Below are positions 6,175 through 53,083 of a DNA stretch of 64,000 bases, piece by piece. A program made the position numbers and the translations under genes. The stretch is from positions 8,568-72,567 of the forward strand of contig JAGRAX010000001.1 in assembly GCA_020434365.1 (NCBI GenBank), read 5' to 3'. Origin of the DNA: Bdellovibrionales bacterium (GTDB taxonomy: Bacteria; Bdellovibrionota_G; JALEGL01; JAGRMV01). Every line of letters begins with the position of its first letter. Position 1 is the first letter of the stretch. The notes beneath the pieces were generated by a model that worked only from the letters and a program-made list of their open reading frames with translations, did no database searches and was not told the DNA's origin.

Positions 6175-8433
6175 ATGAAATATTACAGCCTTCTCATATT
6201 TTTAATTGCCAGCTTACACAACCTGAGCTCTGTGACTTTTGCACAAGAAAAAATATGCTCTGTTGCATTTACGATCAAAGAAAAGGGCAGCAAAAAGAAA
6301 ATTTCCAATGCGAGCATGTTTCTCCTTCCCGAGGGCCTGGAAAAAATCTCCGATGATCAAGGACAACTGAGCTATGATCACCTAAGCTGCACAACACATG
6401 CTTGGGTCATCAATCTCACGGGCTACCTTCGAAGAGATCTTGAAATCAATGTGGAAGACTCCATGTCAAAAACCATTTTTTTGGAGGCCGCCAGCAGTAA
6501 TGAATTTGAAACCATTGTTACAGCAGATAAAAATACCCGAGATGGATCCAAAAGAAGTATTGCGCAGAAAGATTTTATCTCTGCCATTGGGAGTCGCGGG
6601 GATCCCATCATAGCCTTAGAAAATGAAGTGGGCTTTTCGGGTTTTGGCTCGCAAGGAGGTGTCGTTTTGCAAGGCGCGGATCCTGAAGATACGCGTTTTT
6701 ACATTCATGGACATGAGATTCCTCTGATTTTTCACAACCTAGGCTTTTCTTCGATTCTGATTCCCGACGTGGTGGATTCTGTGCAGCTTTACACTGCAGG
6801 GTTTGGTGCAGAGTACGGACGAAGCATCGGAGGGAACGTCAATTTGGAAACTGTCGATCCTCGAAGTGATCGCATTCATGGAATGAGCTATGTAGATTTG
6901 CTCAATGCCGCGGCATTGGTGGAGGGACCCATTGCAGATCATCACTCTTTTTGGATGGGCGGTCGAATCAGTTACATTGGTCCAATTTTTTCATTGGTAA
7001 CCATGAATGATGACAGTGTGTCTTTCAATCAGGTCCCACAATTTTTTGATCTTGAAGCTCAATACAAATGGGACATTTCAAAGAATCTACAGTTTGACCT
7101 TTTGGGCATTGGATCCAAAGACACTGTAAATGTCTTGCTTCGAAATACGGATGATCCTTATTTCAAAGGAGAACTTGGATCCACCACAGCCTTTTATCGT
7201 TTCATCCCTCGGATTCAATATACATGGAATGAGCAAAATCGATTTGAACTATCTATGGGTCTTGGAAAAGATTATGTAAAATTCTCTCTCGGAGATCAGT
7301 TTTTTGATGCCGAAATTTTTCAACCTACCTTAAGATCAGAATGGGAGCAGCATTGGAACGATCAGTGGATCTCGTATGTGGGTTTGGACTTTCAGTATCT
7401 TGACTTTCAAGCGGATGTAAATTTGCCTGCAGGATCTTTTCCCAATGCAGAGGATGAAAATGTGCCTTTGAGTTTGAGAGATGTCATTGTCAAAGAAATT
7501 GAGCAACAAGCACTGCAAGCTGGAGCATATCTGCGAGTTGATTTTTTGACTCAAGATCAGATTTGGAGATTTTCTCCCAATCTTCGTTTCGATTATTTTG
7601 GTCTCACACACAACCTACACATTCAACCAAGGCTCGAGATCGAATCTCGCATTGATAAGCATTGGCGCGCGAGGCTCTCAGGGGGATTGTACCATCAAGC
7701 TCCTCAACCTGCAGAACTGGAAAGCAGTTTTGGAAATCCAGATCTCGAAGATCCCTATGCCCTTCACTATGTTGTCAGTGCTTTGATGGATTTTAGAGAT
7801 AAAAAAGCAGAAGGTTTGTACGGAGATTTCAGCATTTTTTATAAGGACCTTTACAATCTTGTCGTAGACAGTGATGCGCTGATCACAAGAAATGGCAGCC
7901 TCGTCCCCCAAAGATATAGCAATGATGGCAGCGGCTACAGCATCGGAAATCAATGGTCACTCCGATACAATAAAGGCAGATGGTCTCATGCTTTGGCCTA
8001 TACGCTTCTTTGGTCAGAAAAATTCTCTCCCGATGAAGCGCTGTATCCATCATTAGGAGAGCAAAGACACAATGCAAATCTTCGATCGACGGTGAAGCTA
8101 GGAAACTGGTCATTGGGAGCGCGACTACGTGTCATTTCGGGTCAGCGCTATACGCCGGTGCTATCTGCAGCCTATGATGCGGACCAAGATATTTTCTTGC
8201 CTTCTTTTGGGGCGCGTAATTCTCGTCGCGGACCTTTGTTTTATCAATTGGATCTACGCCTGGATCGAAAATGGATCTATGATCAATGGATTCTTTCCTT
8301 TTATCTCGATATTCAAAATGTAACCAATCGAAATAATCCTTTCGAAGTTGAGTATAATTTTGACTACTCGGAGCAAGAGTACTCATCGGGCATTCCGATT
8401 TTGCCAACTTTTGGAATCAAAGGAGAGTTTTAA
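6175..8433 (+). CDS. TonB-dependent outer-membrane receptor with an N-terminal carboxypeptidase-regulatory-like extension
   Basis: 752 aa with a signal peptide, a plug-like region (..DPIIALENEVGFSGFGSQGGVVLQGADPEDTRFYIHG..), a long beta-barrel, and a C-terminal aromatic residue (..FGIKGEF). Confidence 0.8.
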   Translation: MKYYSLLIFLIASLHNLSSVTFAQEKICSVAFTIKEKGSKKKISNASMFLLPEGLEKISDDQGQLSYDHLSCTTHAWVINLTGYLRRDLEINVEDSMSKTIFLEAASSNEFETIVTADKNTRDGSKRSIAQKDFISAIGSRGDPIIALENEVGFSGFGSQGGVVLQGADPEDTRFYIHGHEIPLIFHNLGFSSILIPDVVDSVQLYTAGFGAEYGRSIGGNVNLETVDPRSDRIHGMSYVDLLNAAALVEGPIADHHSFWMGGRISYIGPIFSLVTMNDDSVSFNQVPQFFDLEAQYKWDISKNLQFDLLGIGSKDTVNVLLRNTDDPYFKGELGSTTAFYRFIPRIQYTWNEQNRFELSMGLGKDYVKFSLGDQFFDAEIFQPTLRSEWEQHWNDQWISYVGLDFQYLDFQADVNLPAGSFPNAEDENVPLSLRDVIVKEIEQQALQAGAYLRVDFLTQDQIWRFSPNLRFDYFGLTHNLHIQPRLEIESRIDKHWRARLSGGLYHQAPQPAELESSFGNPDLEDPYALHYVVSALMDFRDKKAEGLYGDFSIFYKDLYNLVVDSDALITRNGSLVPQRYSNDGSGYSIGNQWSLRYNKGRWSHALAYTLLWSEKFSPDEALYPSLGEQRHNANLRSTVKLGNWSLGARLRVISGQRYTPVLSAAYDADQDIFLPSFGARNSRRGPLFYQLDLRLDRKWIYDQWILSFYLDIQNVTNRNNPFEVEYNFDYSEQEYSSGIPILPTFGIKGEF

Positions 8434-40092: not shown

Positions 40093-40494
40093 TTAAGAAC
40101 TTAGAGCCTGCTTCTGCGCATCTAGCCACTCTCTCTGCGCAAAAAGATGTTCCCGATCTTCAATCGATATCTCTTCCGAAAGAAGTTTGGTTTCCAAGTC
40201 CTCTAGTTCTCGATCGAGTTCGTTTTTTTGAATCTGATCAGGAAACAAAGCCTGATCGGCAAAAATCATGACATTGTTTTCGCGCACTTCAAAAAAACCA
40301 TCTCGAAGTGCAAGATGCTTTTTTTGATCGCCCTGATCGATCACCACAACACCTGTGCCAAGCACCGCCACGAGCCCTGCATGCTCAGGCAAAATGCCTT
40401 CCTGACCTTTGGCCGTGGGAAGATATACATCCACACAGGTCGTATCAAGCACATGCTTGGAGGGCGTCACAATGGAAAGCTTGAGCTGACTCAT
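40093..40494 (-). CDS. atpC: F0F1 ATP synthase epsilon subunit
   Basis: 133 aa with an epsilon-like N-terminal beta-sandwich (..LSIVTP...EGILPEHAGLVAVL..). It lies immediately downstream of atpD. Confidence 0.9.
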   Translation of the reverse strand: MSQLKLSIVTPSKHVLDTTCVDVYLPTAKGQEGILPEHAGLVAVLGTGVVVIDQGDQKKHLALRDGFFEVRENNVMIFADQALFPDQIQKNELDRELEDLETKLLSEEISIEDREHLFAQREWLDAQKQALSS

Positions 40495-40496
40495 TC

Positions 40497-41933
<1,437 letters not shown>

Positions 41934-41946
41934 CTAGTTTTTCTAT

Positions 41947-42813
41947 TTATTGAATTGCCTCAGCCCCTGAAATGATTTCTACCAATTCATTGGTAATGGC
42001 AGCCTGTCTCACACGGTTCATATGCAAGGTCAAACTGTCGATCATCTCTCCTGCATTTCTTGTGGCGGCGTCCATCGCCGTCATTCTCGCGCCATATTCA
42101 CTGGCCAAGGAATGCAAGTTGGCTTGATAAAAACTTCCTTCTACTGCTTTGGGCAAAAGCAGTTGGATGATTTGCGCTTTTCCGGGTTCAAACAAGTAGT
42201 CTATTTCTTGTTCCAAATCATTTTCCGCGCCCTGACTTTCTTCTTTTTGAAGAGGAAGCAAAGTCAAAGATTTTGGTTTTTGTGTCATGACAGATTGAAA
42301 TTCGTTGTACAAAATTTCAATGCGGTCGACCTTTCCATCCAAAAAATCTTGCGTCAGGTTTTGACAAAGGTTTTTTGCTTTTTGATGATCAAAGTCTGTC
42401 CAGTAGTCTTCCACAATGTGATGGATTTTATCTTTTTGATTTCGAAAATAACTGATGGCTTTTTTTCCAATCAGAATCAAAGAAGTCTCATACTCTGTTT
42501 GAGACAATGCGCTCTCAACTTTACGAAACAAACTTGCATTGAAAGCGCCACAAAGTCCACGGTCCGAAGACAGCACCACAAGATAACGTTTGTTTCCTTG
42601 AGGCCTTTTTAATAGTGGATCCACACTGTCTTCCACAAAAGGAAGAAGTTTGGCTAGCAAGCTTCGCACTTTTTCTTGATAGGCTTTGCTCTGAGACACA
42701 GCTTCTTGACTTCGACGAAGGCGCGCGGCTGCGACCATTTTCATGGCGCGCGTAATCTTCTGCGTAGAATTTACGCTGCGGATTCGATTGCGAATTGCTC
42801 GAAGATTGGCCAT
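41947..42813 (-). CDS. atpG: F0F1 ATP synthase gamma subunit
   Basis: 288 aa, MANLRAIRNRIRSVNSTQKITRAMKMVAAARL.. and a C-terminus ..ITNELVEIISGAEAIQ. Confidence 0.9.
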   Translation of the reverse strand: MANLRAIRNRIRSVNSTQKITRAMKMVAAARLRRSQEAVSQSKAYQEKVRSLLAKLLPFVEDSVDPLLKRPQGNKRYLVVLSSDRGLCGAFNASLFRKVESALSQTEYETSLILIGKKAISYFRNQKDKIHHIVEDYWTDFDHQKAKNLCQNLTQDFLDGKVDRIEILYNEFQSVMTQKPKSLTLLPLQKEESQGAENDLEQEIDYLFEPGKAQIIQLLLPKAVEGSFYQANLHSLASEYGARMTAMDAATRNAGEMIDSLTLHMNRVRQAAITNELVEIISGAEAIQ

Positions 42814-42819
42814 GAAAAA

Positions 42820-44343
42820 TTACAATCCTTGTTTAACGGGGTTAAATTCTTTTTTAAGCTCTTCCAAGGCTTTGACCAGAGAAGCTTTGACCTCGTCATT
42901 GACTTCTCCTTTTTCTCGGATCATGCGAAGCACTTCTGGATGTTTTTCATCCATAAAACTCAAAAGTTCTTTTTCATACTGCGCGATCGCCCAGGTTTCG
43001 TACTCATCCAAGTATCCATTGATCGCCGCATAAACCACAACAACTTGTTTCTCTACTGGGTAGGGAACATATTGTCCTTGTTTGAGAACTTCGACCAATC
43101 TTTCACCTCGAGCCAATTGTTTTTGTGTGGCTGCATCGAGATCCGAACTAAACTGCGAAAAAGCAGCGAGTTCTCGAAACTGCGCAAGTTCCAATCGCAG
43201 GGTTCCTGCAACTTTTTTCATGGCTTTGATCTGCGCAGACCCACCCACGCGAGACACTGAAAGACCTACGTTGATCGCAGGGCGAACACCCGCAAAAAAT
43301 AAATCTGATTCCAAATAAATCTGACCATCTGTGATCGAAATCACGTTGGTAGGAATATAGGCCGAAACATCTCCCGCTTGCGTTTCAATAATGGGAAGCG
43401 CGGTCAACGATCCACCACCAAGCTCGTCATTGAGTTTGGCTGCGCGTTCGAGCAAACGAGAATGCACATAAAACACATCCCCCGGGTAGGCTTCCCGGCC
43501 GGGAGGACGACGAAGCAAAAGTGACAACTGACGATAAGCTACCGCATGCTTGGACAAATCATCATACACAATCAAAGCGTGCATTCCGTTGTCTCTAAAA
43601 TATTCACCAATGGCCACACCTGCATAGGGCGCAATGAACTGCATGGGCGCAGATTCAGAAGCGTTGGCTGCAACGACGGTGGTGTACTCCATCGCGCCGT
43701 GTTTTTCGAGTTTGTCTACAACCTGAGCAACGGTGGATTGTTTTTGTCCAATGGCTACATAGATACAGTAGACGTCCAAACCTTTTTGGTTGATGATGGT
43801 ATCGATGGCTACCGCTGTTTTTCCCGTTTGACGATCACCAATGATGAGTTCTCGCTGACCTCGACCAATGGGAACCATTGAATCAATGGCTTTGAGTCCT
43901 GTTTGCAAAGGTTCATGTACAGATTTTCTTGTGACAATTCCTGGGGCTTTGAGTTCCACACGTCTTTGCTCTGCTGCCTGAATCTCTCCCTTGCCATCAA
44001 TGGCTTGTCCGAGTGCATTGACAACGCGCCCTACAAGTTCCTTACCGACAGGAACCTGAGCGATCTCTCCGGTTCGCTCTACAATGTCACCTTCTTTGAT
44101 GAGCGTATCATTTCCAAACAGCGTTGCACCTACGTTGTTTTCTTCAAGGTTAAGTGCCATGCCATATACATCATGAGGAAACTTCAAAAGTTCTCCGGCC
44201 ATGACATTTTCTAAACCATAAATTCGAGCAATCCCATCCCCAACAGAAATGACTTTTCCCGTTTCGGAGACTTCCATGCGCGTGTCATAGTCTCGCACCT
44301 GCGTTTTGATCAGCTGTGATATTTCTTCGGCTCTTATGTTCAT
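42820..44343 (-). CDS. atpA: F0F1 ATP synthase alpha subunit
   Basis: 507 aa with P-loop GDRQTGKT and other hallmark alpha-subunit sequence. Confidence 0.95.
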
Positions 44344-44372
44344 GATGTTTCCTTATTGTATCCTTACATTTT

Positions 44373-44915
44373 TTAACTTTGCTTACTCATTCGATCCAAA
44401 TATCCGAGAACAGAAGCATCAAACACAATGCCTCCAACCTGTGCTCGAACGCCCCCTATCAACTCTGGGCTTTCTTCGACCTGAAGGTTGATTTTTTTGC
44501 CCACAGCTTTTTCCAAAGCTTTTGTTATTTTATCTTGCTGCACTTGGCTCAAGGAAAAGGCTGTTTGCACAAAAGCTTTGGTTTGTGCGCGGAGCTCTGA
44601 AAGTTCTTTTTCAAAAGCCTGCGCCACTTCTTCCATCAAATAAAGGTGACCTAGCTGCGCCAAGCACTGCGTAAACCTTTGTATCGGGGCAGAGATTTTA
44701 TATGTCGTAAATATACTTTCGAGGACTTGGTTTTTTTCCTCAGCGTCGAATACAGGATTAGAAAAAAATCCCTTGATCTCACCTTGACTGAGAACGGAAA
44801 GCTGCTCAAGCTGCTGAGCGCTTTGATCATATGCTTTTTCATTGGCCTGTTCCTGAAGAACATCCAATAGAGCGTGCGCGTAGCGAGCTGCGAGCTGATC
44901 ACTTTTTTGTGCCAT
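44373..44915 (-). CDS. atpH: F0F1 ATP synthase delta (OSCP) subunit
   Basis: 180 aa (OSCP-like ..RYAHALLDV..). It sits between the b and alpha genes. Confidence 0.8.
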   Translation of the reverse strand: MAQKSDQLAARYAHALLDVLQEQANEKAYDQSAQQLEQLSVLSQGEIKGFFSNPVFDAEEKNQVLESIFTTYKISAPIQRFTQCLAQLGHLYLMEEVAQAFEKELSELRAQTKAFVQTAFSLSQVQQDKITKALEKAVGKKINLQVEESPELIGGVRAQVGGIVFDASVLGYLDRMSKQS

Positions 44916-45398
44916 TTAAATCTGCTCTCCTAACTGCGAAACAAACTGATCCACAAACTGATCGTGGTGTTTTGAACTCATTTGTTTTTTGAGCTCTAAC
45001 TTACTTTCTTCAAGAGCTTGGCCCATGAGTTTTTGTGCCAGCCTTTGCTGCGCAAGTTTTTGCTCTTTTTCAGCTTGGCGCTGCGCCGCCTCTACAATTT
45101 GATCTGCTTGTCTTTGCGCGCGTTGTAAAATTTTTTCTTTTTCAATTTGTCCGTCCTGTTGGGCCTTATGTAAGATATGCTCAACTTCTTGATCTAGAGC
45201 ATTGATTTTACGATCAATGTCTTTGAGCTTTTCTTCAGCTTGTTTTCGAAGTTTTTCACTCTCATCGATATTTTGTGCAATGTCTTCTTTACGCTGCGCC
45301 AAACTTTGAGCGACTGACTTTCTCATGAGAAAAAACAAGGCCAAAGCCAAAAGCACGAGATTTAAAAAAGGTGCAATCAATGACGACAATCCGTGCAT
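44916..45398 (-). CDS. atpF: F0F1 ATP synthase b subunit
   Basis: One N-terminal TM plus a long coiled coil. I placed the start at the internal ATG (MHGLSSLIAPF..), which gives a TAAtATG junction with the upstream b' gene; the track ORF extends to 45503. Confidence 0.75.
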   Translation of the reverse strand: MHGLSSLIAPFLNLVLLALALFFLMRKSVAQSLAQRKEDIAQNIDESEKLRKQAEEKLKDIDRKINALDQEVEHILHKAQQDGQIEKEKILQRAQRQADQIVEAAQRQAEKEQKLAQQRLAQKLMGQALEESKLELKKQMSSKHHDQFVDQFVSQLGEQI

Positions 45399-45399
45399 A

Positions 45400-45972
45400 T
45401 TATGAAGCCCTCGTTGCTTGAGTTTGGCTTTGCGCTCGAGGCCTTTGCTTCGCATCGACTTGTCCCAACACTTTTTCAACAATGCTTTGGGCAAGCTCAT
45501 CACGGTGAGAAGACAGCCCGCTTTGCGCGTCTTTTTCCTGTGAAGCGATTTTTTCTTTTTCTTTTTCTAGCCATTGGCTGGATTTTTCTCGGGTGGCTTC
45601 TAACGATTTTTTCTCTTCTTCTTCAGCTGCCAAAGCCAGCGCCTCACGAGTTTGCGTGGCCTTGATCTTGGCTTCTTCAATGCGCTGCTGATACATGTCC
45701 CATTTTTCCTGACTCAAGAGCTCGTCTTTTTCTGCGAGTTTTCTTTTTCCAAGGGTTTGAGCATCTCGCTCATCGGCTGTCCGTATATAAGGTTCAAATA
45801 CTGTCATCTGCAAAAGCAAAAGAAGTCCCAAAAACAACAAGCCTTGATACAAATATCCATGAGGAGCTTCGACTCCAATGGCTTTCCAAAATCCAACAAC
45901 AGGAAGCAAGAGCGCAAAGGCGGAGAAAACTCCAGCCAAAACAAAAATGTAGGTAAAGGAATGTTTTTTCAT
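45400..45972 (-). CDS. F0F1 ATP synthase b' (second b-type stator) subunit
   Basis: 190 aa with an N-terminal TM (IFVLAGVFSAFALLLPVVGFW) and a charged coiled coil. It lies directly upstream of atpF. Confidence 0.7.
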   Translation of the reverse strand: MKKHSFTYIFVLAGVFSAFALLLPVVGFWKAIGVEAPHGYLYQGLLFLGLLLLLQMTVFEPYIRTADERDAQTLGKRKLAEKDELLSQEKWDMYQQRIEEAKIKATQTREALALAAEEEEKKSLEATREKSSQWLEKEKEKIASQEKDAQSGLSSHRDELAQSIVEKVLGQVDAKQRPRAQSQTQATRAS

Positions 45973-45975
45973 CGC

Positions 45976-46461
45976 TTAGGCTTGAGGACTGATTCCGTTT
46001 TTGCTTTTGTCGGCTGTGGCCTTGACTGCAGCAAAGGGCGCATTTTTCTTTTGATGAGCAGACTTACTCATGCTGCACTTTCCATCAAACTGTACTCCAT
46101 CTTCGATAACAAGGGATGGGGTATCAATGTCTGCTTCTACAACTGCATTTTTGTGGAGTTCAACGCGGGTTTTTGCATGAATGTTTCCCTGAAAACTTCC
46201 CGAAATGGATACTGAACCCACATTGATGTCACCTTCGACTTTTCCGCTTTCGCCGATGACCATGTGTGATTCGGAATAAATTTGACCCTTAAATGTGCCG
46301 TCGATGCGAACCGTACCCTCAAAGGTGAGCTTGCCTTCGAACTCACTACCACGATCTAAAATCGCATTGAAGCCACCGACAGGGGTCGTTACTTTGTGAC
46401 CTGCTCCGTTGGTACTGAAACTCTCGCTCTGTGTACTTCGTTCATTTTTTAGGATTCCCAT
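45976..46461 (-). CDS. bactofilin (polymer-forming cytoskeletal protein, DUF583)
   Basis: 161 aa with the bactofilin beta-helical repeat pattern (..GKLTFEGTVRIDGTFKGQIYSESHMVIGESGKVEGDINVGSVSISGSFQGNIHAKTRVELHKNAVVEADIDTPSLVIEDGVQFDGK..). Only 3 nt separate it from the downstream b' gene. Confidence 0.85.
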   Translation of the reverse strand: MGILKNERSTQSESFSTNGAGHKVTTPVGGFNAILDRGSEFEGKLTFEGTVRIDGTFKGQIYSESHMVIGESGKVEGDINVGSVSISGSFQGNIHAKTRVELHKNAVVEADIDTPSLVIEDGVQFDGKCSMSKSAHQKKNAPFAAVKATADKSKNGISPQA

Positions 46462-46684
46462 GATTTTTTCTCCTCGAGCTACTTGGGCCGTATACAGACG
46501 GATTGACAGCCCACAAAGCCTACGCCGGAACTATAAAATTCGCTCTCAACTGTCAAGGAAAGAGTGGCTCAGGGGCGCTTTTGGCATGCTTTTGCTGCAA
46601 TGCTACCTAAAAATCTTACGCTGCCGATATGATATGAGTCTGACTCGTGACGTCGCTGCTTTTTTGATCTACACTTAAAGCCAC

Positions 46685-47623
46685 ATGCCAAAACCCACCC
46701 TTCTTTTTCTGCTTGTCATCGTATCTTGTTCCCGGCTATGGGCTCAGGAAAAATCTCATCCAGAGGACGCTTTTCCTTGGGTTGAGTTTCGGCAAAGGCC
46801 TTTTTCTATCCAAAAGCCGGAGCGTATTCGACATCAGGTTTGGCACAGCGCCTGGATCAAGGGCATTCATAGGAAGTTCATTCTACAAAACAAGACCCAA
46901 GATCCACCAACTGGACCTACGATCTGCGCGCCTGTGAAAGAGTTAGACCATGCGTATCTTTGCATCAGTGCGAGGCAGGAGGACCAAAATCGGCTCTTTT
47001 CTCGTATGTCGATTTTTTCAGAAGGCACCAAGGCTCTCGCTCCTGGAACCTGGGTGGAACTTTCAAACCCTTGGTATCAATACTATAGTTATATGGTCGG
47101 TGGTCACGATCTGAGACAGAGCGTTCTTCAGGATTTTTTCTCTCACAGCCAAGCAAGCAAGCGGCCTTTATCTCCAAGGGAAGATGCTTTTTATAGGGAG
47201 GTATTTCTTCCTCTGGAAAAGAAATATTTCGACCCCTCGCCACAAGCTGAAAACATAAAAGACTTTGGATCCATGCAAGCCTATTCGATCATTACAGCAT
47301 CTGTACAAAGTCATTTGGATTTTGAGGTGGTTGTAACGCATGAGTTTTTGCATGCGCAGTTTTATCTAGACTCTCAACTTCAAAAACTTTTGTTAGAATA
47401 TTGGAAACGTAAACTTACAGAAAAAGAAAGGGCGGACATCACCCTCGCTCTTTCGAAAGCTGGATATCACAAAGAGGATTTGTATGTTGTCATCAAAGAA
47501 TTTTATGCCTACCTTTTTCAGAAAGATGCGCAGCACTCACGCATGAAACCTTGGGTCAACACTCATCAAAAAAAAATTCGCCGAAGATTAAAAAAAGCAG
47601 GCATTCCCGCATACACATTTTAG
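46685..47623 (+). CDS. hypothetical secreted protein with an HExxH motif
   Basis: 312 aa with a signal peptide and a single HEFLH motif. No confident family assignment. Confidence 0.4.
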   Translation: MPKPTLLFLLVIVSCSRLWAQEKSHPEDAFPWVEFRQRPFSIQKPERIRHQVWHSAWIKGIHRKFILQNKTQDPPTGPTICAPVKELDHAYLCISARQEDQNRLFSRMSIFSEGTKALAPGTWVELSNPWYQYYSYMVGGHDLRQSVLQDFFSHSQASKRPLSPREDAFYREVFLPLEKKYFDPSPQAENIKDFGSMQAYSIITASVQSHLDFEVVVTHEFLHAQFYLDSQLQKLLLEYWKRKLTEKERADITLALSKAGYHKEDLYVVIKEFYAYLFQKDAQHSRMKPWVNTHQKKIRRRLKKAGIPAYTF

Positions 47624-47626
47624 TGT

Positions 47627-48544
47627 TTATAAAGATGAAAAGCCAAAAGACTCTAGCGCAGCTTTTGCAACTTGCTCGCCATGCTCTTGTACAAAATGCC
47701 CCGCCTGCGAAAGACATAGCGGAGGCGGGCAGTTGGCAATAACTTTGCTCATGGGTAGCATCACATCCGGTCCAAGAATGGGATCTTTCATCCCAATGGC
47801 CATAAAACTGTCTCCACTCCAAGAAGTCTTCCACCACGCAAGAGCTTGCTGCGAAAGTTTGGCAATTGGGTCGTCAGATGAGGTAGGTACAAGATCTGGA
47901 AAACGTCGTACTCCAGCGCAGTAACGTCCATTTGGAAAAGGCGCGCTATAGGCCGATGCTTCTTCTTGGCGTATTGAAGGTTCCCATTTTTGCATCAGCC
48001 TGTCCACGTGAAGAAAGTCATGCTTTCGATTGAAATCTCTCCACTGCAAAAAAGCCTCGTTGACCTTTCCGATTCCAAAACCCGTATTCATGATTAACAG
48101 TCTTGTGAAAAGACTTGGCATTTCCATGGGAAGCGTTAAGCCCAAAAGACCTCCCCAGTCCTGGCAAACCAAGGTGATATTTGTAAGCTCTAGTTTTTCG
48201 ATCAAGGCAATCAAAAGGTTGCGATGAAAGTTAAAGGTATACACTTCATCGTCAACAGGTTTGTCTGATTGTCCAAATCCGAAAAAATCTGGAGCCACAA
48301 CGCGAATCCCCTTTTGCACAAAAACAGGAATCATTTTTCGGTAGAGATAACTCCATGTCGGCTGGCCATGCAAACACAAAAAAATATCTTTGGAATCTTT
48401 TGGACCTTCATCGAGATAAGCAAGACTCAATCCCTCATAGCCAGGTACATTTTCGAGTCTGAGTGTAGAGAATGAATACCCTGGCAAAGCTTCGAAGTTT
48501 TCCTGCGGCGTCCGAAGAACTTGAGTTGATCGCATCAGACTCAA
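47627..48544 (-). CDS. haloalkane dehalogenase-like alpha/beta hydrolase (HLD-I / DhlA-like)
   Basis: 305 aa with long stretches resembling Xanthobacter DhlA as I recall it. ..FLCLHGQPTWSYLYRKMIPVF.. and ..APDFFGFGQSDKP.. are present, as is ..ITLVCQDWGGLLGLTLPM.. with the Asp nucleophile in QDWGG and catalytic His in ..AGHFVQEHGEQVA... Its ATG abuts the parB stop. Confidence 0.7.
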   Translation of the reverse strand: MSLMRSTQVLRTPQENFEALPGYSFSTLRLENVPGYEGLSLAYLDEGPKDSKDIFLCLHGQPTWSYLYRKMIPVFVQKGIRVVAPDFFGFGQSDKPVDDEVYTFNFHRNLLIALIEKLELTNITLVCQDWGGLLGLTLPMEMPSLFTRLLIMNTGFGIGKVNEAFLQWRDFNRKHDFLHVDRLMQKWEPSIRQEEASAYSAPFPNGRYCAGVRRFPDLVPTSSDDPIAKLSQQALAWWKTSWSGDSFMAIGMKDPILGPDVMLPMSKVIANCPPPLCLSQAGHFVQEHGEQVAKAALESFGFSSL

Positions 48545-49480
48545 CTAGTTTCGAAGTTTATCAAAAAAACCTTGCAGCTCCGATCGCGAAAAATAGCTGA
48601 TCGTGATCTCACCCTTTTCATGGGTTTTGGGTTTGATTTGTACTTTGGTTCCCAATTGTCTTTGTAAATTTTCTTGAAAGTTTCGAAGAAACACATCCAA
48701 ATCCGAAGTGCTTTGAGTTTTTTTACTCTTGCGGTTGGGGTTTGCAATTTCGTTTTTTACAAGATTTTCAATCTGCCTCACAGAGAGATCTTCTGCGATG
48801 CTTCTTTGGGCTAAGCGTGTTTGTTTGTTGGGATCTGAACTTGCAAGCAGCGCACGTGCATGCCCCATGCTCAATTGTTTTTCGCTTACAAGTTTTTGAA
48901 CAGAGTTGGGAAGTTTGAGCAAGCGAAGCATATTGGTCACCGTGCTTCGATTTTTTCCTGCTTTTTGTGCGAGTTCTTCATGACTCAAAGAAAACTCTTT
49001 TTGAAGGCGCTGATAGGCAAGAGCTTCTTCGATGGGATCCAAATCTTCCCGTTGTAAATTTTCAATGAGCGCGATTTCCAATTGTTCTTGGTCTGTGCTG
49101 GAACGAACAATGACGGGAACATTTGTAAGTCCGAGTTTTTTGCAAGCTCGAAGTCTTCGCTCACCCGCAATGAGTTCATAGTGAATGCCCACACGTCTGG
49201 CAACCAAAGGCTGAATGACTCCATGCTCTTTGATGGAGGCAACCAGATCTTCCAGGGCTTCATCCCGAAAATATTTTCGAGGTTGGCGTGGATTGACTTG
49301 GATGTCCTGAATTAAAACATCTCGAACAAGCGCGCTGGTTTCAAAATTTTTTTCTTCCGTAACACTATTTTTGCTCACTGTAGATGCGTTTGTAGAAACT
49401 GCACTTTGAGCCTTTTCATCAAAGGATTTTTTTTGAGGAATCAGTGAAGAGAGTCCTCTTCCGAGTCTTTTTTCTTTCAT
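48545..49480 (-). CDS. parB: chromosome partitioning protein ParB
   Basis: 311 aa with ParB box motifs (..GERRLRACKKLGL..) and an HTH. It is downstream of parA. Confidence 0.9.
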   Translation of the reverse strand: MKEKRLGRGLSSLIPQKKSFDEKAQSAVSTNASTVSKNSVTEEKNFETSALVRDVLIQDIQVNPRQPRKYFRDEALEDLVASIKEHGVIQPLVARRVGIHYELIAGERRLRACKKLGLTNVPVIVRSSTDQEQLEIALIENLQREDLDPIEEALAYQRLQKEFSLSHEELAQKAGKNRSTVTNMLRLLKLPNSVQKLVSEKQLSMGHARALLASSDPNKQTRLAQRSIAEDLSVRQIENLVKNEIANPNRKSKKTQSTSDLDVFLRNFQENLQRQLGTKVQIKPKTHEKGEITISYFSRSELQGFFDKLRN

Positions 49481-49483
49481 TGC

Positions 49484-50317
49484 TTACAGCCTTTCTATGT
49501 TTGCAGGTTCTGAGTTTGTTTGCAGTTCTTGCAGGGGCGCTTGTTGTTTTTGTTTTTGTCGGTCAAAAAACTCTTTGGCGAGAGCCAGATAGTTTTGCGC
49601 ACCACTACTGCGAATGTCATACATCAAAATAGGTTTTCCAAAACTCGGTGCTTCACTTACGCGTACATTTCTTGGAATTTTTGTTCGATACAAAATCCGT
49701 CCGAAATGATTTTTGACTTCGAGTTCTACCTGATGACAGAGAGAATTTCGTTTGTCGAACATGGTCAGAAGTATGCCTTCCAATCGAAGTTTGGCATTGA
49801 GGTTTTCTCGGACGAGATCAATGGTTTGAACCAACCGACTCAAACCCTCTAAGGCGTAATACTCCGCTTGCAGGGGAACAATCACTTGGTCTGCGCAGCT
49901 CAAGGCGTTGACTGTGAGTAGGCCCAATGATGGTGGGCAGTCAATAAGAATGTAGTCGTACTGCTCGCTCACCTGCTGCAAAAGTTTTTTGAGTTGGTAT
50001 TCCCTCTCGGGCAAATCTACAGCTTCGATTTCAAAACCAATCAAATCTGGTGTCGTAGGCATGACATCCAAAAAAGGTGTGTCCGTTTTTTTAATGATCT
50101 GCTCTGCACTGCTCTGTCCAATCAATCCGTCATATAGCAGATGCTCTTGACCTGCGGTCACACCTACGCCGCTGCTTGTATTGGCTTGTGGATCTAAATC
50201 AACCAAAAGAACTTTTTTTTCTTGAACCGCAATAGAGGCTCCCAGGTTGATGGTGGAGGTGGTTTTACCCACACCACCTTTTTGATTGGACATGGCGATG
50301 ATTGTAGCTTTGCTCAT
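49484..50317 (-). CDS. parA: chromosome partitioning ATPase ParA (Soj)
   Basis: 277 aa with a deviant Walker A KGGVGKTT. Its start overlaps the mnmG stop. Confidence 0.9.
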
Positions 50318-52198: not shown

Positions 52199-52921
52199 TT
52201 ACCGTCTCACCAAGCTTTCAGTTTCATAATAACGATTGGCCACAGAGACATTGGGATACACAAGACAAGCTGGGGCCATCAGCACACCGGGGTTTAAAAC
52301 GCTGTTACATCCTGTTTGACAGCCGTCACCTATAATGGCGCCCATTTTTCTCAAGCCTGACTCTATGTCATCCCCTTGAATTCGAAGCTTGACTTCTCCA
52401 TCCGTAATTTTCAAGTTCGAAACTTTCGTACCCGCTCCCAAATTGACCTCATTGCCAAGAATGCTGTCCCCAACATAGGCAAAGTGCGCGGCCTTAGCGC
52501 CGTTACAAAAAATAGAACTTTTCACCTCTGTCGCATGACCAATCACACAGTGTTCTCCTGCAATCAAACCTCCCCGGATATAGGCTGATTGGCGAATCTG
52601 ACTGTGAGGACCTATAATACTGGGTCCCTGAATGTAGGCTCCAGGCTCAACGGTCACACCTTCTCCAAGCTCAACCTCTCCCTCAAAGTAAGCTCCAGCT
52701 TTAATATAGACCTTTCCTCCCCCTCTGGACCTTAATTCTGTATCTTCTAAAATCAGTCCCTGTGGAGTGTTCGGTGAAATTTGACTTTCAATCCACTCTT
52801 CTTTTACTCCCTTTGACAAAATATCCCAGGCAAATTCTAGATCTTGAAAAAGATCACGAAACCACAAAAGCTTTGTGTCGACATAGTGATCAATATTATA
52901 TGTTTCACGTGAAACATTCAT
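52199..52921 (-). CDS. hexapeptide-repeat (left-handed beta-helix) protein, probable acyl/nucleotidyl-transferase-like
   Basis: 240 aa with repeated [LIV]G..x..x hexads through the central region. It lies 1 nt upstream of mnmG, and its first codons contain an 18-bp palindrome. Confidence 0.5.
52900..52917. promoter_or_regulatory. perfect 18-bp palindrome ATGTTTCACGTGAAACAT (copy 1)
   Basis: 9+9 perfect inverted repeat overlapping the start codon region of the 52199..52921 gene. An identical core occurs at 53064..53083. Confidence 0.5.
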
Positions 52922-53063: not shown

Positions 53064-53083
53064 CATGTTTCACGTGAAACATG
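53064..53083. promoter_or_regulatory. perfect 20-bp palindrome CATGTTTCACGTGAAACATG (copy 2)
   Basis: Starts 15 nt downstream of the dnaN stop. It shares the core of copy 1 with one extra base pair on each side. Confidence 0.5.

Follow-up and report, generated by a model that had tools for sequence, protein, structure and literature searches.

A BacM/Bd3904-type bactofilin gene as the predicted first cistron of an F1/stator ATP synthase operon in a Bdellovibrionales genome

In a stretch of 64,000 nucleotides (nt) from a Bdellovibrionales bacterium (GenBank assembly GCA_020434365.1, contig JAGRAX010000001.1, positions 8,568 to 72,567 of the forward strand; hereafter, the window), a bactofilin gene ends 3 nt before the first gene of an F1/stator ATP synthase cluster. 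The reading that we favor, with confidence somewhat better than even, is that this gene is an ortholog of Myxococcus xanthus bacM and Bdellovibrio bacteriovorus bd3904 in a derived form of their gene block; that it is transcribed from a conserved promoter of its own together with atpF'FHAGDC, with the b' gene translationally coupled to it; and that it encodes a general scaffold whose place beside the atp genes is a matter of history.

Results

The bactofilin gene runs into the ATP synthase operon

The bactofilin gene (45976..46461, minus strand) encodes 161 amino acids and ends with TAA at 45978-45976. Three nucleotides, GCG (45973..45975, minus strand), separate this stop from the ATG of atpF' (45400..45972), the gene for a b'-type stator subunit of 190 amino acids that was assigned by a PF00430 match of 28.5 bits and by its position. 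The cluster continues on the minus strand with atpF (b; 44916..45398, 160 amino acids counted from the ATG at 45398; PF00430, E=4.7e-13), atpH (delta/OSCP; 44373..44915; PF00213, E=2.7e-37), atpA (alpha; 42820..44343), atpG (gamma; 41947..42813), atpD (beta; 40497..41924), and the last gene of the operon, atpC (epsilon; 40093..40494). We identified atpA from its open reading frame (ORF) translation and its alignment to related-locus genes with ATP-synt_ab Pfam domains, atpG and atpD from ORF translation and alignment to related loci, and atpC from alignment to related loci. The true ATG of atpF lies 1 nt past the b' stop, and the gaps in front of b, delta, alpha, gamma, beta, and epsilon are 1, 0, 29, 6, 22, and 2 nt. 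The order b', b, delta, alpha, gamma, beta, and epsilon on one strand, without a and c, is that of an F1/stator operon. Genes for the a and c subunits were found neither in the operon nor by a motif scan of the 64-kb window, which is a weak test; they are located elsewhere in the genome, as an earlier reading of the letters without database searches (the sequence-only reading) had held.

A gap of 3 nt leaves no space for a terminator between bactofilin and b'. Consensus scans detected no terminator-like site on the coding strand from bactofilin to b' and, within the bactofilin gene, no promoter-like site with at least 9 of 12 consensus positions, even when spacers of 15 to 19 nt were allowed. 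An Rfam scan of 44000-48000 returned chance-level matches only, with no riboswitch or small RNA in the leader or at the junction. The relaxed promoter scan (15- to 19-nt spacers, minus strand, 45300-46700) gave a single match to 11 of 12 consensus positions, a promoter-like element (46530..46556, minus strand) composed of TTGACA (46556-46551), a 15-nt spacer, and TATAGT (46535-46530); the default scan had missed it because of the 15-nt spacer. The element sits about 95 nt before the bactofilin ATG, in a divergent intergenic region of 223 nt (46462..46684, minus strand) that also contains the strong bactofilin Shine-Dalgarno sequence, GAGGAG, 7 nt before the ATG. No such sequence precedes b', whereas b, delta, and most of the later genes have one. 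Because b' lacks its own Shine-Dalgarno sequence and starts 3 nt past the bactofilin stop, its translation is probably coupled to that of bactofilin through termination and reinitiation, which is the simplest reading of the junction. Taken together, the short junction, the absence of internal terminator- or promoter-like sites, and the conserved upstream box support co-transcription of bactofilin with atpF'-atpF-atpH-atpA-atpG-atpD-atpC, which we regard as the only reasonable interpretation of these signals. Both the 3-nt junction and the shared transcript had been put forward by the sequence-only reading, and on these points it held up.

The junction and the upstream box are conserved in the clade of the window

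To examine the junction in close relatives, we used a clade set of 14 genomes (the window, L005-L010, L016, L045, and L086-L090, with five Bdellovibrionota/Oligoflexia genomes added). The atp genes lie directly downstream of bactofilin in all 14, and this recurrence means that the arrangement is not due to chance. The distance from the bactofilin stop to the b' start was called in 12 genomes, leaving out L016 and the frameshifted L045. It is 3 nt in the window, 2 nt in L005, and 1 nt in L006; the genes overlap as TGATG in L008 and by 4 nt (-4 nt) in L089 and L090; and the gap is 13 nt in L007, 21 nt in L088, about 28 nt in L010, about 75 nt in L087 and L009, and 122 nt in L086. The L086 spacer (6562-6683) contains a perfect hairpin (TCTCGCC-AAAGA-GGCGAGA) with no T-run, at which the operon transcript might be processed or attenuated.

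Each of the 11 genomes with available upstream sequence has a perfect TTGACA box at 65 to 128 nt before the bactofilin ATG, and an A/T-rich hexamer follows 15 nt past it. Where parB directly precedes bactofilin (L007 and L008), the box is located between the two genes. By a back-of-the-envelope estimate, TTGACA would occur in a given 130-nt stretch with a chance of about 3%; set against this value, its presence in 11 of 11 genomes marks it as a phylogenetic footprint. Two further observations concern this region. A second conserved block (GCAGCAAAAG; window 46575-46600, minus strand) is found about 35 to 40 nt upstream of TTGACA in the window, in L005 and, less well kept, in L045. This block might serve as an UP element or bind a regulator. 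The database starts of two related bactofilins (L002, 10001-10618, 205 amino acids; L086, 6001-6561, 186 amino acids) precede the conserved MGLLK and overrun the TTGACA box, and they are probably miscalled.

These results bear on whether the two neighbors could be adjacent without sharing expression, with the atp genes driven mainly by an unrecognized promoter or processing site in the 3' part of the bactofilin gene. Consensus scans miss noncanonical promoters, the 75- to 122-nt gaps of genomes such as L087 and L086 could hold elements of this kind (and L086 has its hairpin there), and the expression level required of a scaffold protein plausibly differs from that of ATP synthase subunits. However, the bactofilin gene of the window holds no such promoter-like match and its coding strand no terminator-like site, transcripts begun upstream could not stop within 3 nt, and the sole conserved noncoding element that was found lies upstream of bactofilin. 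We therefore consider independent expression very unlikely.

The encoded protein is a canonical bactofilin of the BacM/Bd3904 type

The protein matches PF04519 (Bactofilin/DUF583) with E=1.7e-31 and 108.8 bits over model positions 2-97 of 98, and by sequence it matches the solved bactofilins 2N3D (BacA; E=6.5e-10) and 6RIA (E=1.2e-07), which bears out its initial description as a canonical bactofilin; no NCBIfam model matched it. In a protein database, it has a 100% identical counterpart from a metagenome-assembled genome labeled Bdellovibrionales bacterium. Its predicted architecture is an N-terminal MGILK tail, a beta-helix core, and a C-terminal tail rich in K, A, and S. The polymerization-interface residues L35 and I124/F125 of BacM and F130 of BacA correspond to L35 and F125 of the window protein. 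L35 is invariant across an alignment of 24 sequences, and F125, which aligns with BacA F130, is F or L in every ortholog. In BacM, mutation of these residues abolishes polymerization. The window protein would thus form nucleotide-independent filaments, with subunits joined at their conserved hydrophobic ends through L35 and F125. The N terminus is conserved among orthologs as MG(I/L)LK, a hydrophobic pair plus a lysine, unlike the published global membrane-targeting consensus MFSKKKK, and membrane attachment through MGILK is possible. The filaments would act as a general scaffold in shape or envelope.

The parB-adjacent bactofilin of Myxococcaceae locus L075 is 43% identical to the window protein and carries LLGKGS...DKGVIFEGTMKMENL, strings of BacM that we read out of the primers used for mutagenesis by Zuckerman et al. 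2015. This identity, together with a single neighbor-joining tree of orthologs (a rough tree), supports orthology to the parAB-linked bactofilin, and the window ORF is best described as a putative BacM/Bd3904-type ortholog. Its orthology to Bd3904 (Q6MGM1) rests on position and clade. The sequence-only reading had named BacNOP/PadC as the parAB-linked bactofilin system of myxobacteria. That attribution was mistaken, as bacM is the M. xanthus gene immediately downstream of parAB, whereas bacNOP and padC belong to another operon (Lin et al. 2017, PMC5703909). By tblastn, the 64-kb window contains one bactofilin and one ParB match, with no second ParB-like (PadC-type) ORF and no further bactofilin. 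Since there is one bactofilin and no second ParB-fold ORF, the gene is assigned to the BacM/Bd3904 type and not to a BacNOP/PadC system.

Two genes and a terminator-like hairpin lie between parAB and bactofilin

Upstream of bactofilin are parB (48545-49480, minus strand; Pfam ParB_N/HTH_ParB/ParB_C) and parA (49484-50317, minus strand; Pfam AAA_31/ParA). From parB to the bactofilin start we measured 2,083 nt, in place of the previously stated distance of about 1.5 kb, and two genes intervene, so that bactofilin is not immediately downstream of parAB as a BacM-type gene would be. The first intervening gene encodes a haloalkane-dehalogenase-family alpha/beta hydrolase with a TTG start (47627..48544, minus strand; NF002043, 318.6 bits against a cutoff of 265; PF00561). 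It adjoins the parB stop and looks appended to the parAB unit. Just past its own stop, the terminator scan found a terminator-like hairpin with a T-run (47597..47610, minus strand). The second is a divergent ORF of 312 amino acids (46685..47623, plus strand) with no Pfam or NCBIfam match; a homolog is present in the corresponding insert of L005 (6918-7817). Because it combines a signal-peptide-like N terminus with an HExxH motif (HEFLH), it may encode a secreted zinc metallopeptidase. The hairpin past the hydrolase and the opposite orientation of the next gene make read-through from parAB into bactofilin unlikely here.

Of the 12 evaluable genomes of the clade, only two (L007 and L008) have parB directly adjacent to bactofilin. 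Elsewhere, the two are separated by one to seven genes that differ between lineages: L005 has DUF938 and Trp repressor genes there, L089 has thioesterase and DJ-1/PfpI genes, and L086 and L088 have unknown ORFs. L087 and L090 have no parAB within 6 kb of bactofilin. These patterns suggest that in this clade bactofilin is the promoter-proximal cistron of the F1/stator operon and that the parB/bactofilin boundary is a gap between transcription units which tolerates insertions. The proposal that the gene is a conserved par-linked element is therefore upheld in one part, since it belongs to a conserved par-linked block, and not in the other, since in its own clade the link to parB is loose and the link to atp is fixed.

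Past parB, the order is parA, mnmG, a left-handed-beta-helix (LbH) acetyltransferase-like gene, two parS sites, dnaN, and dnaA. The nearby parS, dnaN, and dnaA place the window next to a replication origin. The two parS sites are perfect 16-bp palindromes (TGTTTCACGTGAAACA; 52901-52916 and 53066-53081) with a spacing of 165 bp. One falls within the initial codons of the LbH acetyltransferase-like gene, and the other lies between genes, ahead of dnaN. From parA, the sites are about 2.6 kb away on the upstream side, and from the bactofilin start about 6.4 kb. B. bacteriovorus is likewise drawn with two parS sites near the origin. In the window, mnmG and parA overlap by 4 nt (50314-50317), with no rsmG (gidB) between them; rsmG is there in E. 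coli, Anaeromyxobacter, and B. bacteriovorus (bd3908) and is missing in L001, L088, and L086.

Given this neighborhood, the bactofilin could be a scaffold that organizes ParABS as BacNOP/PadC does, by positioning ParB-parS or sequestering ParA, with the atp neighborhood being incidental. BacNOP prove that bactofilins can organize ParABS (PMC5703909), two perfect parS sites are close by, and parB lies within 500 nt upstream in most related loci (see below). Furthermore, reverse transcription-PCR in B. bacteriovorus showed co-transcription of bd3904 with parA3 and parB, and a ParB-restraining role has been suggested for its product (Milner et al. 2020, PMC7186360). However, the par-linked paralog of M. 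xanthus is BacM, the deletion of which leaves ParA and ParB localization unchanged and which acts in cell shape (PMC5703909). In the window, a PadC-like ORF and a further bactofilin are absent, the divergent gene and the hairpin cut bactofilin off from parAB, and the gene has a conserved promoter-like box of its own. Together with the loose parB link in the clade, these points make a ParABS-organizing role unlikely.

The block is ancestral in Myxococcota and Bdellovibrionota

Orthologs of the bactofilin were detected in 551 genomes, and the synteny survey took in 80 loci, collected from context look-ups and a one-genome-per-species scan and all of Bdellovibrionota or Myxococcota type. We mapped the window proteins onto these loci by tblastn, and 62 had enough flanking sequence to be evaluated. 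Half of them (31/62) have parB-bactofilin-atp, and in another 4 this order is kept but additional genes separate parB from bactofilin; parB-bactofilin only is found in 13/62, bactofilin-atp only in 5/62, and neither parB nor atp nearby in 9/62. The parB gene is no more than 500 nt upstream of the ortholog in 44 of the 62 loci. With this adjacency and that in B. bacteriovorus HD100, the window locus is read as a derived state of the same block. The nine loci with neither neighbor were considered as possible paralogs and nest among the orthologs in the rough tree. In the same tree, the parB-bactofilin-atp block occurs in every deep clade, which argues that it is the ancestral state; mnmG-(rsmG)-parA-parB-bactofilin-atp(F1/stator) is thus, as judged from these sequences, the ancestral order in Myxococcota and Bdellovibrionota.

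This block is not always an operon. In Anaeromyxobacter, an opposite-strand Hsp20-like gene lies between bactofilin and atpH (L023, 10507-10953, minus strand), similar gaps of 650 to 850 nt are found in most Anaeromyxobacter loci, and the F1 operon begins at delta, without b or b'. The intervening hsp20 rules out a single parB-bactofilin-atp operon in that genus and shows that the block is one of synteny. In E. coli, the order is oriC-mnmG-rsmG-atpIBEFHAGDC with no bactofilin, so the neighborhood of mnmG and atp is older than, and independent of, the bactofilin. In Pseudomonas and Vibrio, parAB presumably lies between rsmG and atpI.

The b' subunit has an additional N-terminal hydrophobic segment

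Assignment of the b' gene needs some care. Its PF00430 score is barely over the threshold (28.5 bits against a cutoff of 28), NCBIfam B/B' models match it weakly and all under their cutoffs, and BLASTP detected no similarity between b' and b, so that the b' label rests on Pfam and on position. Hydropathy analysis gave two hydrophobic segments in b' (approximately residues 4-35 and 40-63) and one in b, and the Pfam ATP-synt_B match on b' begins only at residue 43. The extra N-terminal segment (MKKHSFTYIFVLAGVFSAFA...), which is conserved among relatives, might be cleaved off as a signal peptide or form a second membrane helix.

This feature raises the question of whether the bactofilin is a partner of the ATP synthase, a membrane-associated polymer that recruits, clusters, or assembles the b'/b stalk or F1Fo and is kept stoichiometric with b' by translational coupling. 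Consistent with this idea, the atp genes follow bactofilin in every clade genome, with overlapping or 1- to 3-nt junctions in several, whereas the parB link decays freely; b' has no Shine-Dalgarno sequence of its own; and the b' proteins of the clade carry the unusual extra segment. Bactofilins also bind clients via short cytoplasmic tails of membrane proteins (PMC12448750), and Csd5 of Helicobacter pylori, a binding partner of the bactofilin CcmA, recovers ATP synthase in pull-downs as well. However, the contact of Csd5 with ATP synthase is independent of CcmA (PMC9507126), and a shared promoter suffices to explain an unbroken junction. In addition, hsp20 parts bactofilin from atpH in Anaeromyxobacter, where no b or b' follows; the 13 parB-bactofilin-only loci, including Myxococcaceae, keep bactofilin with parAB while atp is elsewhere; and Gammaproteobacteria have mnmG-rsmG-atp without a bactofilin. 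On balance, a partnership with the ATP synthase appears improbable. In a narrower version, the bactofilin of Bdellovibrionota/Oligoflexia would serve the ATP synthase as a dedicated partner: produced at a constant ratio to the two-segment b', it would form a membrane polymer that anchors or clusters F1Fo (for example, at a pole) via the peripheral stalk. This version is in our view quite doubtful; if true, it would reveal a cytoskeletal organizer of a bioenergetic machine. The sequence-only reading had offered co-regulation of a polar scaffold with energy metabolism as one possibility, and nothing in the analysis shows a functional coupling of the two.

Discussion

We propose that two genes were inserted between parB and bactofilin in this genome and that the hairpin past the inserted hydrolase would end the parAB-hydrolase transcript ahead of bactofilin. 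Transcription would most likely start at the conserved sigma-70-like promoter upstream of bactofilin and then run unbroken through to atpC. Once the operon promoter lay upstream of bactofilin, the origin-proximal order would have been frozen. The bactofilin-atp junction would be kept because a break would strip the ATP synthase of its promoter, which would be lethal or strongly deleterious, and breaks between parB and bactofilin would be harmless.

Several points weigh against this model. A functional tie between bactofilin and ATP synthase would equally give a linkage that is invariant across the clade, and freezing by a shared promoter is one interpretation of that pattern. The predicted promoter is a consensus match only, with a short 15-nt spacer and a -10 hexamer that is poorly conserved in relatives. 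The bactofilin-b' gaps of 75 to 122 nt in some relatives are long enough to accommodate an attenuator or another promoter. In B. bacteriovorus, parA3/parB transcripts read through into bd3904 (PMC7186360), and bactofilin can therefore also join the par transcript where the genes are adjacent. Finally, the cellular role is extrapolated from BacM, which is merely 43% identical. Even with these caveats, co-expression of a scaffold-type bactofilin with the atp genes through a shared promoter is the explanation that we favor.

The arrangement is ordinary for its lineage and is also present in the model predator B. bacteriovorus; it is an inherited origin-proximal order and not a new system. The locus prompts a rereading in which the par-linked bactofilin of Myxococcota and Bdellovibrionota is of the BacM/Bd3904 type and not BacNOP. 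In the Bdellovibrio lineage, this bactofilin appears to be tied in its transcription no less to the F1/stator operon than to parAB. A bd3904 knockout would thus probably be polar on ATP synthase, and bd3904 expression may track the atp genes and not parAB. In published B. bacteriovorus expression data, ParB is strongly cycling and Bd3903/Bd3902 are flat. More broadly, the locus is a clean case of an origin-proximal order, mnmG-parAB-X-atp, preserved across phyla, in which one linkage would be held by a shared promoter while the neighboring boundary is a hot spot for insertions. A full-text search combining bactofilin, parAB, and ATP synthase returned, as judged by title, no paper on a bactofilin-atp operon. 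A few small points are apparently unreported: bactofilin is fused to the atp operon throughout the clade, the promoter box is conserved, and the parB boundary is, by contrast, unstable.

Among known systems, Bd3904 of B. bacteriovorus HD100 shares its lineage with the window gene at the phylum level and has the order parA-parB-bactofilin-b'-b-...-gamma; by locus tag, the block Bd3906-Bd3897 includes Bd3906 (parA), Bd3905 (parB), Bd3904 (bactofilin), Bd3903 and Bd3902 (ATP synthase b), and Bd3898 (gamma). We found no published function for Bd3904. The two loci differ in that parB of HD100 is directly adjacent, with parAB read-through, while the window has the insertion and the terminator-like hairpin. 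BacM (MXAN_7475), for which a cell-shape role and N-terminal proteolytic processing are reported from experiments (Koch 2011, as cited in Lin et al. 2017), resembles the window protein in its bactofilin domain with the SEFEGKLTFEG-VRIDG core, in L35/F125, and in its place in an origin-proximal block downstream of parAB. In Myxococcaceae (L075), however, the atp genes are no longer downstream, whereas the window gene is split from parAB by two genes and joined to the atp operon. BacNOP/PadC of M. xanthus belongs to the same family and illustrates that bactofilins can organize ParA and ParB, but it consists of three copolymerizing paralogs and the ParB-fold adapter PadC, encoded in a separate operon, and the window has neither. 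Lastly, the atpI-led operon of E. coli is similar in its origin-proximal mnmG...atp order and in having a small noncatalytic gene next to the promoter. AtpI is an unrelated membrane protein, however, and the E. coli operon contains a and c, whereas the operon in the window starts with bactofilin-b'-b.

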